DNA of 64,000 nucleotides from Oscillospiraceae bacterium (GCA_022799035.1 JAAWNQ010000009.1:289-64288), one strand, 5' to 3'. Positions 10,855-47,848 are shown, counted from the stretch's first letter. Notes: a model not told the origin generated them from the sequence alone. Program-made: numbers and translations.

Positions 10855-11511
10855 GTGAACAAACCTTTCCGCGCGGTCATTTTTGACATGGACGGGGTCC
10901 TGGTGGACTCTGAATGGCAATATCACCTCCGAAGACTTGATTTTCTCCGGGAGCATGGTGTAGAATTGCCACAGGAAACCCTTCCCCAGGTCATCGGCCG
11001 CCCCTACCAAAGCTATGTGGACATGGTCCTGAGCCTGGATGGAGTCTCCTGGACCCAGGAGGAATATACCCGCCTCTACGATGCCTATACCCAGCGAATC
11101 GGGCGGCTCCACTACGACCAATGCCTGTTCTCAGACGCCCCCGGCGTCCTCTCCCTTCTGAAGCGGAAGGGACTTCGTCTGGGTCTGGCCTCCTCCTCCC
11201 CCCGGAGGGCGGTCTCCCTCATGCTCTCCGACTGCGGCTTCGGGACTATATTTCACTGTGTCTTGGCCCAGGAGGACGTGGAGCAGGTCAAACCCTCCCC
11301 TGAGATCTACCGAAAAGCCGCCGCCCGCCTGGACCTCTCCCCTGAGGAGTGCGTGGCGGTGGAGGATTCGGTCCACGGCATCCGCTCCGCCCTGGACGCG
11401 GGGATGACCGTGGTGGCAAAGACCTCCCCCCATTATGAGCTGGACCAGTCCGCCGCCCACTACCACATCAGACAGCTTCAGGACCTGCCCCCTCTTCTGG
11501 AGCGGCTGTAA
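10855..11511 (+). CDS. HAD-IA family phosphatase
   Basis: IFDMDGVLVDSE, LASSS, KPSPEIY, VEDSVHG; GTG start 10855 after AAGGAGG. Confidence 0.88.
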   Translation: MNKPFRAVIFDMDGVLVDSEWQYHLRRLDFLREHGVELPQETLPQVIGRPYQSYVDMVLSLDGVSWTQEEYTRLYDAYTQRIGRLHYDQCLFSDAPGVLSLLKRKGLRLGLASSSPRRAVSLMLSDCGFGTIFHCVLAQEDVEQVKPSPEIYRKAAARLDLSPEECVAVEDSVHGIRSALDAGMTVVAKTSPHYELDQSAAHYHIRQLQDLPPLLERL

Positions 11512-43353: not shown

Positions 43354-43902
43354 TTACTTCTTCTTGACGCCGGTCTTACCTTCCTTGCGGCGGATGACCT
43401 CGTCAGCGTATTTGATTCCCTTGCCCTTGTAAGGCTCGGGAGGTCTTTTCTCTCTCACTTCAGCGGCGAACTGGCCCACCTTCTGCTTGTCGGGACCATG
43501 GATGGTAATGTGGTTGGGATCGGGCACGTCGATGGTGATCCCCTCGATCTCCTCCATAATAACCTGATGGGAGAAGCCCAGGTTCATCACCAGCTTCTTG
43601 CCCTCCTTGGCCACACGGTAACCTACGCCGTTGACTTCCAGATCCTTCTTGAACTCCTCGGTGACGCCCACCACCATGTTGTGGAGCAGGGTCCGGGTCA
43701 GGCCGTGCAGGCTCCGGTTCTCCTTGGCGTCATCGGGCCGAGTCACGTGGAGCTCGGCACCCTCCTGGGTAATGGTCATGGCGGGGCTGAGCTGCTGGCT
43801 CAGGGTTCCCTTGGGACCCTTGACGGTAACAACGTTACCCGCCTCGATCTTCACGTCCACACCGGCGGGGACAGAGATCGGCATTCTACCAATTCTAGAC
43901 AT
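43354..43902 (-). CDS. rplF: 50S ribosomal protein L6
   Basis: [15 protein letters not shown]. Confidence 0.99.
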
Positions 43903-43917
43903 TCTCTATTCCCCTCC

Positions 43918-44319
43918 TTACCATACGAAGGCCAGCACTTCGCCGCCAACGTGGGCGGCCCGGGCGGCCTTGTCGGTCATAACGCCCTTGGAGGTGGACA
44001 CGATGGCGATGCCCAGGCCCTTGATGACCCGGGGCATCTCGTCGGCGCCGGCGTAGACCCGCAGACCGGGCTTACTCACCCGGCGCAGACCGGTGATGAC
44101 CTTCTCCTTATTGGGCTGGTTGTACTTCAAAGTGATGCGGATGACGCCCTGGGTGCCGTCGTCGATGAGCTGGTAATTCTTGATATACCCCTCATCCAGC
44201 AGGATCTGGGCGATGGACTTCTTCATGTTGGAAGCGGGAACGTCCACCGAATCATGCTTGGCATTGTTGGCGTTGCGGATACGGGTAAGCATATCCGCGA
44301 TGGGATCTGTAATGTGCAT
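43918..44319 (-). CDS. rpsH: 30S ribosomal protein S8
   Basis: [21 protein letters not shown]. Confidence 0.99.
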
Positions 44320-44360
44320 GCTTTTTTACCTCCTTATAGAGTTACAGGCAGAGCCTGTAT

Positions 44361-44410
44361 CAGCGGCAAGGTATCTGAGGTTAGGCAGCCCCAGACCTGT
44401 TAAACCGCTG
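44361..44410 (-). promoter_or_regulatory. Candidate uS8-binding operator hairpin (16S h21 mimic) upstream of rpsH
   Basis: mRNA CAGCGG..AGGUCUGGGG loop CCUCAGAUACCU..CCGCUG with bulged UA in GAUAC. Confidence 0.5.
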
Positions 44411-44449
44411 TCGGGCACTTTCAAATAACCGGGCAAAAGCCCCCTGGTT

Positions 44450-44635
44450 TTACCAGGAGGACTTTTTCACCCCGGGGATCTGACCCTTGTAAGCCAGCTC
44501 GCGGAAGCAGATACGGCAGATACCGTAGTCCCGCAGGTAGGCGTGAGGCCGGCCGCAGAGCTTGCAGCGGTTATAGCGGCGGCTGGAGAACTTGGGAGTC
44601 CTCTGCTGCTTGAGGATCATAGACTTCTTCGCCAT
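44450..44635 (-). CDS. rpsN: 30S ribosomal protein S14 (Zn-binding type)
   Basis: RCKLCGR...CRIC. Confidence 0.98.
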
Positions 44636-44647
44636 GGTATTCCCTCC

Positions 44648-45331
44648 TTACGCCCGGTCGGCGAAGGGCGCGCCGATGAGCGTCAGCAGCTCCCGGGCCT
44701 CCTCGTCGGTGTTGGCGGTGGTGCAGAGCACAACGTCCATGCCCCGGATCTTGTCGATCTTGTCGTACTCGATCTCGGGGAAGATCAGCTGCTCCTTGAT
44801 ACCCAGAGCGTAGTTGCCCCGGCCGTCGAAGGAGTTGGGGTTGATGCCCCGGAAGTCACGGACGCGGGGCAGGGCCACGTTGAACAGACGGTCCAAAAAC
44901 TCCCACATCCGGTCGCCCCGGAGGGTGACCTTGGCGCCGATGGGCATCTCCTCACGGAGCTTGAAGTTAGCCACGGACTTCTTGGCCTTGGTGATGATGG
45001 CCTTCTGGCCGGTGATCTTGGTCAGATCCCCCACCACAGCCTCCAGCACCTTGGAGTTCTCCCGAGCCTCACCGCAGCCGCAGTTGACCACGATCTTGTC
45101 CAGCTTGGGAAGCTGCATCACGGACTTGTAGCCGAACTTCTGCATCAGAGCAGGAGCGACTTCCTTCTGATACTTGGCCTTCAGGTTGGGGACGTACTTG
45201 CCGTCGTCAGCTTTGGCAGCCTTCTTCTCGGCCTTGGGGGCCTTCTCAGCCTTGGGGGCGGCAGCCTTCTTGGTCTTGGTCTCTTTGACCTCGGCCTCAG
45301 CCATCACCTCGGGCTCTTTCTTCTCAGCCAT
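44648..45331 (-). CDS. rplE: 50S ribosomal protein L5 with N-terminal K/A/E-rich extension
   Basis: [15 protein letters not shown]; RBS GAGGAG at 45331 start. Confidence 0.97.
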
Positions 45332-46969: not shown

Positions 46970-47848
46970 TTACTCTTGCCCTCCTTCCTGAATCTCAGGA
47001 GCGGCGGCCTCCACAGGAGCGGCGGCCTCTACCGGCTTGGGGGCCGGACGGCTCTGGACGCGGTTATAGCTGGGGCCGCTGGGACGGCGGTCGCCGTCGC
47101 GGCGGGGGCCGCCCCGGCGGTCGTCCCGGCGGTCGCCGTCACGGCGATCCCGGCGGGGACGCTCAGGACGCTCCTTGAAGTTCTTGGTGTCCAGCGTACG
47201 GGGGGTGGTCCGCAGGGTCTGGGTCAGGACCTCGCCCTTGTAGATCCACACCTTCACGCCGATACGGCCATAGGTGGTAGCGGCCTCGGTAAAGCCGTAC
47301 TCCACATCGGCCCGCAGGGTCTGCAGGGGGATGGTACCGTCGTGGTAGTGCTCCACACCGGCGATCTCACGCCCGCCCAGACGGCCGGAGCAGGAAATCT
47401 TGATACCCAGGGCGCCGGCCCGCATGGCCCGGCCCATGGCGTTCTTCATGGCCCGGCGGTGGGCGATACGGCCCTCCAGCTGCTGGGCGATGTTCTCGGC
47501 CACCAGCTGGGCGTTGGTATCCATGCTCTTCACCTCAACAATGTTGAGGGCCACGCTCTTACCGATCATCTTCTCCACCTGGGCGCGGAGCCGCTCGATC
47601 TCGGCGCCGCCCTTGCCAATGACCACACCGGGCTTGGCGCAGTGGAGGTAGATCCGCACCTTGGCGTTGTCGCGCTCGATCTCGATCTTGGGAACGCCGG
47701 CGGAATACAGGGTCTTCTTCAGGTACTCCCGGATCTTGTGATCCTCCACCAGCAGGTCGCCCACCAGCTCGTTCTTAGCGTACCAGCGGGAGTCCCAGTC
47801 CTTGATGATGCCTACCCGGAGGCCATGAGGATTGACTTTCTGTCCCAT
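46970..47848 (-). CDS. rpsC: 30S ribosomal protein S3 with long R/D/G- and A/P-rich C-terminal tail
   Basis: [31 protein letters not shown]. Confidence 0.98.

Follow-up and report, generated by a model that had tools for sequence, protein, structure and literature searches.

The spc operon is the longest ribosomal-protein operon, and its control outside Gammaproteobacteria is an acknowledged gap. E. coli uS8 represses the spc mRNA via a mimic of helix 21 of 16S rRNA (PMC3616713, PMC10931766). Could the long spacer that directly precedes the uS8 gene rpsH in an Oscillospiraceae bacterium be a uS8 operator of another design? The window in which this spacer was analysed is the whole stretch of 64,000 nt (GCA_022799035.1 JAAWNQ010000009.1:289-64288). 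Its ribosomal-protein genes, rpsN, rpsH and their neighbours among them, are all on the minus strand, and the gap between rpsN and rpsH is the sole long one in its S10-spc cluster, since the other junctions from rpsC to secY measure -1 to 17 nt. The features around this gap are as follows.

45331..44648, minus strand: rplE (Pfam: L5)
44450..44635, minus strand: rpsN, the upstream gene, for a 61-aa uS14 of the zinc type (Pfam PF00253)
44449..44320, minus strand: the rpsN-rpsH spacer, 130 nt
44319-44317, minus strand: AUG of rpsH
43918..44319, minus strand: rpsH for uS8 (133 aa), the presumed ligand and the presumed regulated gene (Pfam PF00410, E = 5e-54)
43902..43354, minus strand: rplF (Pfam: L6)

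The uS8 encoded here is canonical. It matches the S8 chain from Bacillus anthracis in the aptamer complex 4pdb (4pdb_A) with E = 1e-52 and also the S8 chain of the E. coli S8-spc mRNA complex 1s03, and its STS and GGEV motifs are conserved. Elsewhere in the cluster, the L5 ORF (44648-45331, minus strand; 227 aa) carries a Lys/Ala-rich N-terminal extension of about 47 aa (outgroup L5 has 180 aa), and the S3 ORF (46970-47848, minus strand; 292 aa) ends in a C-terminal tail rich in Arg, Asp and Pro. The window also contains, upstream of its S10 cluster, a match to the Rfam S10-Clostridia leader RF03136 (52006-52076, minus strand), with 36.5 bits against a gathering score of 35.1.

Read as mRNA, the first half of the spacer is

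AACCAGGGGGCUUUUGCCCGGUUAUUUGAAAGUGCCCGA-CAGCGGU-UUAAC-AGGUC-UGGGG-CUGCCUAA-CCUCA-GAUACCU-U-GCCGCUG-A

and the second half, which follows directly, is

UACAGGC-UCU-GCCUGUA-ACUCUAUA-AGGAGG-UAAAAAAGC-AUG

These sequences comprise the following elements.

44427..44449, minus strand: hairpin adjoining rpsN, AACCAGGGGGC-UUUU-GCCCGGUU, then AUUUGA (from the MFE fold)
44404..44410, minus strand: 5' strand of P1, CAGCGGU, pairing with 44367-44361
44399..44403, minus strand: 5' side of the P1/P2 internal loop, UUAAC
44394..44398, minus strand: 5' strand of the P2 core, AGGUC, in which GUC corresponds to G597-U598-C599 of 16S rRNA
44376..44393, minus strand: apical stem of P2, UGGGG/CCUCA with the loop CUGCCUAA, the variable part
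44369..44375, minus strand: 3' strand of the P2 core, GAUACCU, corresponding to G639-A640-U641-A642-C643 and then C-U
44361..44367, minus strand: 3' strand of P1, GCCGCUG, pairing with 44410-44404
44343..44359, minus strand: P3, a 7-bp hairpin, UACAGGC-UCU-GCCUGUA
44335..44342, minus strand: conserved linker ACUCUAUA, whose CUCU at 44341-44338 could pair with GGAG (P4)
44329..44334, minus strand: Shine-Dalgarno of rpsH, AGGAGG, invariant across the alignments

The bulge in P2 consists of U44373 and A44372, and the full P2 pairing is AGGUCUGGGG/CCUCAGAUACCU. The P1-P2 hairpin has a predicted energy of -23.5 kcal/mol compared with -13.9 +/- 2.8 for shuffles (z = -3.4), and the fold of the whole leader gives z = -2.1 against its shuffles. 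The bare string GGTC-N8-38-GATACC is found 10 times in the GC-rich window versus 3.6 times expected from shuffles; because such a string is not rare, the case rests on the helix and on its conservation across orthologues. Nine of these 10 sites lie within coding sequence without a helix, and the excess is probably a codon-usage effect. The hairpin adjoining rpsN starts directly after the stop codon of this gene and has the U-rich tail AUUUGA. It is common only to close relatives (L001, L002, L011 and L029) and lies outside the conserved core; it resembles a terminator and may be a partial terminator or a stabiliser. Two further pairings of the leader were considered and rejected: its CUGUAA could pair with UUACAG in codons 3-5 of rpsH, where synonymous sites vary freely among orthologues, and its apical loop GCCUA could form a pseudoknot with the Shine-Dalgarno region, with a loop sequence that is not conserved across groups.

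To see what is kept, orthologous loci were retrieved via the uS8 protein alone, so that their choice carries no bias for the RNA. They came from 80 species-level genomes, all of them Oscillospiraceae with 84-96% identity in uS8, and cover Flavonifractor, Pseudoflavonifractor, Intestinimonas, Lawsonibacter, Oscillibacter, Dysosmobacter, Vescimonas and Evtepia. The spacer is long in 80/80 genomes (126-781 nt), and the core was found in all 81 orthologous spacers, that of the window included. It reads AGGUC...GA(U/G)ACCU in 78/81 and AAGUC...GAUACCC in 3/81, the 3' strand being GAUACCU in 77/81, GAGACCU in 1/81 and GAUACCC in 3/81. GUC/GANAC is present in 81/81 sequences; the equivalent of the bulged A642 is likewise found in 81/81 and that of U641 in 80/81, with G at this position in locus L001. 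The apical part of P2 is highly variable: 37 distinct stem tops occur in 78 sequences. The covariance model R1, which is based on 27 sequences, scored 87.9 bits in the window (E = 2e-24) at 44419..44314, with no other meaningful score there, and it matches in front of rpsH in nearly all orthologous loci.

The sequences fall into three structural groups. Group 1 is the window's type, for which 44 sequences were aligned to the covariance model: 96.3% of the cells are paired, and 12/21 pairs show compensatory changes, with 97 double-change cells. When the partners were slid by 1-3 columns as a control, only 33-47% were paired. Compensatory changes occur in 4/6 pairs of P1, in four pairs of the apical P2 and in 4/6 pairs of P3, where 97% of the cells are paired. 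Group 2 is the Oscillibacter/Dysosmobacter-like type, GGAUGGCG-AA-AGGUC...GAUACCU-CGCUGCCU, in which the long apical P2 exceeds 10 bp and carries an inserted hairpin as well. Here 29 sequences were aligned by plain MAFFT, fitted to no structure; 98.0% of the cells are nonetheless paired and 12/28 pairs are compensatory. In both groups, 0/500 shuffles reached the observed values, a statistic that overstates independence because the sequences are phylogenetically related. The helices are secure, because they rest on the slid-partner control and on the many distinct pair types. On the other hand, the core pairs A-U, G-C, G-C, U-A and C-G, the last three being the equivalents of G597-C643, U598-A640 and C599-G639, have no variation in 44/44 sequences of group 1 and 29/29 of group 2. 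Group 3 (three genomes) has the form CAG-AA-GUC...GAUAC-C-CUG, with P3 as elsewhere and a stronger P4. Separately, group 2 has an invariant AAUU/AAUU inside P2, above covarying pairs (columns 27-30 and 66-69; e.g. L036:472-606).

How closely does this core follow the rRNA? The uS8 site in helix 21 comprises the (G597-C643)-U641 triple, the invariant A642 and the U598-A640 pair, with ordinary helices on both sides, as well as a lower triple 595-(596-644), formed as A-(A-U) in E. coli but as G-(C-G) in Thermus (PMC4176348). The leader, with G-U-C opposite G-A-U-A-C and U-A bulged, contains the full core except the lower triple, and regular helices of free sequence flank it, as P1 and the apical P2 covary. 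Compared with helix 21 of E. coli (nt 588-651), the strand order, the 5' GUC and 3' GAUAC, the bulged U641-A642, the G-C closing pair, the variable helices on both sides and the A-rich 5' strand beneath the core are all alike. The apical stem of the leader is much shorter, however, and its context is an mRNA, with P3 and the ribosome-binding site of rpsH after it. The two also differ beneath the core, where helix 21 has A596-U644 with A595 stacked as a triple and the leader has an invariant G-C at the 596-644 position and then an A-U below, next to the A-rich 5' strand. An A-(G-C) triple would be compatible with this arrangement. The triplet preceding AGGUC is GAA, AAC, AAA or AAU in 78/78 sequences, and the A-A-(C/A/U) run just 5' of AGGUC is a candidate for the equivalent of A595. 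Group 3 has AA and a lone C at the 596-644 level. As Thermus has G595-(C596-G644), variation at 596-644 is tolerated. Bacillota 16S rRNA generally has GAAAC rather than GAUAC at the helix-21 site. The first-pass annotation had drawn P1, P2 with UA bulged, a 7-bp P3 and the Shine-Dalgarno of rpsH, and every one of these is present. It had further proposed that GUC/GAUAC with the bulged UA copies the uS8 site and had pointed to covariation among orthologous spacers as the way to check it; the comparison agrees, with core nucleotides near-invariant in 81 sequences, GUC/GAUAC kept and the surrounding helices covarying.

The element is also tied to the start of rpsH. In 71/78 sequences, the end of GAUACCU is separated from the AUG by 46-60 nt. 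Five loci have much larger distances (L024, L027, L030, L039 and L045), with an extra 40-210 nt inside the P3 loop. These insertions are structured, and since they are confined to the loop with the base of the P3 stem (AC...GU then AA) kept, the geometry of P1, P3 and the Shine-Dalgarno is under selection. P3 is followed by a linker rich in pyrimidines (CUCU, UCUU, CUUC or CCUU) that may pair with GGAG of the Shine-Dalgarno as a weak helix, P4, which is predicted by MFE folds and reaches 6 bp in group 3. At least four consecutive pairs are possible in 62/78 sequences compared with 24% of shuffled linkers. P4 stays at the level of a prediction, because the Shine-Dalgarno is invariant and hence beyond covariation; judging from these folds and pairings, sequestration of the Shine-Dalgarno by the linker is possible in each of the three groups.

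Among the lineages compared, the element is confined to one family. A first search with uS8 gave only relatives with at least 94% identity, and outgroups were obtained via representative proteins and a profile search. In the outgroups 'Eubacterium sp.', 'Ruminococcaceae bacterium' and 'Clostridia bacterium', the gene order is the same, and the spacers between rpsN and rpsH are 33-36 nt long and have no structure. Since these three lineages of Clostridia lack the element, it is an Oscillospiraceae-specific insertion. In Rfam 15, the window spacer has no match even at E <= 10, nor have the orthologous loci, and Rfam has no family for the S8 operator of E. coli either. A survey in 2013 found the S8 RNA only in Gammaproteobacteria, at the start of rplE (PMC3616713), and a review in 2024 states that spc regulation in B. 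subtilis and other species is unknown and that phylogenetic studies have brought no advance (PMC10931766). In the literature searched, including a 2020 paper on 20 new leaders, there was no S8 leader outside Gammaproteobacteria. Two further statements of the first-pass annotation thus stand, namely that the element occupies an unusually long rpsN-rpsH spacer and not the start of rplE (130 nt versus at most 17 nt elsewhere in the cluster) and that, as far as the literature searched goes, it is undescribed.

The spc operator of E. coli and other Gammaproteobacteria shares with our element the presumed ligand and the logic, that is, an rRNA mimic in the spc mRNA for translational feedback. The architectures are different. 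The E. coli operator is at the rplX-rplE junction, almost 100% within the L5 coding sequence, and overlaps the AUG, whereas the Oscillospiraceae element is at the rpsN-rpsH junction, fully intergenic and about 50 nt upstream of the AUG. The strand order is also opposite, as GAAACU precedes AAGUC in the E. coli operator and the Oscillospiraceae element follows the rRNA order. Moreover, R1 gave no match in the spc region of E. coli. By its junction, topology, AUG distance and lack of homology, the candidate leader stands outside the gammaproteobacterial family. The window's own rplE start was also considered as an S8 site of the E. coli kind and rejected: GAAACC and AGGUC are there, with no helix joining them. 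The leaders S10-Clostridia (RF03136), S4-Clostridia, S15, L20 and L31 are likewise narrow-range structured cis-regulatory RNAs found by comparative genomics. The published sets of Bacillota ribosomal-protein leaders contain no S8 leader, and the Oscillospiraceae element differs from them in being operon-internal, not in a 5' UTR.

A second S8 mimic was found in another phylum, in gut Melainabacteria. Metagenomes were scanned for GATAC 38-68 nt upstream of rpsH genes whose product starts with MxMTDP, a start that excludes Oscillospiraceae. Most matches are chance occurrences inside rpsN, but about 14 contigs with long AT-rich spacers differ from these (L103, L105, L116, L121, L123, L125, L126, L131, L132, L153, L159, L165, L184 and L196; e.g. 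L121:5555-5650, minus strand). Common to their spacers, which measure 78-360 nt, is the hairpin GGAUACU-(5-bp covarying stem, loop)-AAGUCC. Its end is 13-23 nt from the AUG and in many cases directly next to GGAGG. This hairpin is exactly the helix-21 core of E. coli, including the G645-U594 wobble, in an order permuted as in the spc operator of E. coli, and it has no match in Rfam. The uS8 protein of one contig is identical to the uS8 of 'Clostridium sp. CAG:768' / Candidatus Stercorousia, a member of the order Gastranaerophilales in Melainabacteria. With its core AAGUC / GAUACU, covarying stem, long spacer and rpsH downstream, the Gastranaerophilales mimic is like the Oscillospiraceae element; unlike the latter, it abuts the Shine-Dalgarno, has no P3, is AT-rich and belongs to another phylum. 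R1 has no match to these loci, so the two are not homologous, and the permuted strand order suggests convergence. Such a convergent core before rpsH is the strongest indirect argument for uS8 as the ligand. A further contig, L146 (about 11040-11118), whose uS8 ends in ...LCYVF, has an 89-nt rpsN-rpsH spacer of the same permuted design, AGAUACU-GAGAGAU-loop-AUCUUUC-AAGUCU-GGAG-N10-AUG.

From these sequence comparisons, we consider it probable, at roughly two chances in three, that the rpsN-rpsH RNA is a uS8 operator to which uS8 binds as a repressor. We infer the binding, the repression, a mechanism by steric hindrance or entrapment, and the coupling to downstream genes. The asymmetric internal loop of P1-P2, 5'-A-G-G-U-C / 5'-G-A-U-A-C-C-U with U-A bulged, would be the recognition core, and uS8 in excess of free 16S rRNA would bind there. 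P3 and the short linker, through P4 with the Shine-Dalgarno, would hold this site at a fixed geometry to the ribosome-binding site, so that bound uS8 would hinder or trap the 30S subunit at the rpsH start, and the genes from rplF through rplO would be affected via their tight downstream junctions. The P1-P2 core overlaps neither the Shine-Dalgarno nor the AUG, whereas the E. coli operator does overlap the AUG. With some 50 nt between the core and the AUG, it is not obvious that bound uS8 would repress sterically, and the steric detail is the weakest link of the operator reading.

Do the hairpins need uS8 at all? They might be a structural feature of the mRNA with no specificity for this protein, such as stabilising or processing hairpins (for example a target of RNase III or RNase Y, or an element that stabilises the 5' end), and would then divide the spc mRNA into two halves of differing expression. 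Their position between cistrons, the terminator-like hairpin after rpsN, the TATAAT 6-7 nt upstream of P1 in Flavonifractor-type loci and the hypervariable, hairpin-rich 5' part of the spacer would suit such a role. A generic stabiliser, however, needs no invariant asymmetric loop, and here 7-8 loop and closing nucleotides matching the S8 core are fixed in 81/81 sequences, the stems vary freely, and a second phylum has arrived convergently at this core in front of rpsH, so that we regard a purely structural role as unlikely. The same fixed core, with the compensatory changes around it, its invariance across 81 species-level sequences amid hypervariable flanks, the fixed AUG distance and the absence of the element from the outgroups, makes a chance resemblance in a conserved but functionless spacer barely credible, even though the bare GGTC...GATACC string recurs in the window.

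If a ligand is accepted, it could still be another one, for example uS14, uL6, uL18 or uS5, a small molecule, or some other protein. Position alone is often the basis on which leaders of ribosomal-protein genes are assigned, the downstream rplF, rplR and rpsE could in principle supply the regulator, and group 2 has the extra invariant AAUU/AAUU segment in P2. Yet among the known sites of ribosomal proteins the core fits only that of uS8, Rfam gives no riboswitch or leader match, and rpsH is immediately downstream of the element in every case; a different ligand thus seems quite improbable. Slightly less improbable, though still doubtful, is that uS8 binds with an outcome other than simple repression, either as an activation switch or through altered mRNA decay or transcription. 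For activation, the 3' strand CCU(U/C) of the S8 helix would alternatively pair with the Shine-Dalgarno, and uS8 binding would free the latter. RNAalifold did draw such CCUU:GGAG pairs on the first alignment, and uS8 of E. coli also sets off mRNA decay by retroregulation (PMC3616713). On the other hand, all four of these alternative pairs are invariant and appeared only from an out-of-register P1, so we rejected them as an artefact of this register error, and P1-P2 with its -23.5 kcal/mol would need melting. Positive autoregulation would also be destabilising, and we know of no precedent for it in a ribosomal protein.

On the operator reading, the control point moved from rplE to rpsH in Oscillospiraceae, and L5 and S14 would escape direct control, unlike in E. 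coli. The element is a concrete candidate for the uS8 operator of this family, which is abundant in the gut. Its alignment can seed a new RNA family, and an otherwise unexplained spacer gains a better annotation. More tentatively, and with slightly less than an even chance in our judgement, uS8 feedback may be widespread beyond Gammaproteobacteria via independently evolved, non-homologous helix-21 mimics before rpsH: one in rRNA order, coupled through P3/P4, in Oscillospiraceae, and a permuted one abutting the Shine-Dalgarno in Gastranaerophilales. In these lineages the spc operon would then be divided into two units of translational control, L14-L24-L5-S14 being free of S8 control and S8-L6-L18-S5-L30-L15 being subject to it. 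P1-P2 and then P3, 2-3 nt further on, may also imitate the h21-h22 junction of the rRNA, which reportedly raises S8 affinity greatly in Aquifex. Together with the Melainabacteria motif, the element would be a natural experiment in which one protein-RNA core was recruited repeatedly into different mRNA architectures.

With regard to transcription, contigs of four mouse-gut metatranscriptomes match 44215/44252..44521 exactly, a stretch that runs from the 3' end of rpsN across the whole spacer into the 5' end of rpsH. For a Flavonifractor-like relative, rpsN, a 429-nt spacer and the start of rpsH are all covered by one RNA contig. These contigs, which are unstranded assemblies and may include DNA, are consistent with co-transcription of rpsN, the spacer and rpsH. 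Towards its 5' end the spacer is hypervariable and rich in hairpins. A small ORF in the spacer (GUG...UAA, 31 codons) was rejected, as it has no Shine-Dalgarno and the differences in spacer length are not multiples of 3.

A perfect TATAAT, absent from the window, stands 6-7 nt ahead of P1 and about 21-22 nt ahead of AGGTC in Flavonifractor-type loci (L005, L009, L017, L019 and L021). Its place suggests an internal promoter and a transcript starting with the S8 hairpin, and if this is true, the element may in some species, such as Flavonifractor, double as 5' leader to such a promoter. A universal internal promoter was rejected, as the window lacks a strict -10 hexamer at a fixed distance and, apart from a few other loci, those of the Flavonifractor type alone have one. 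Long spacers (L033, L034, L041, L052, L061, L067, L071, L072, L080 and others) have a GC-rich hairpin followed by GGUUUUGAUA, a recurring unit that looks like a terminator or a module of terminator and -10. Group-2 spacers have, ahead of P1, a hairpin with UGGUAAUAUA or UUGAUAUAAA after it.
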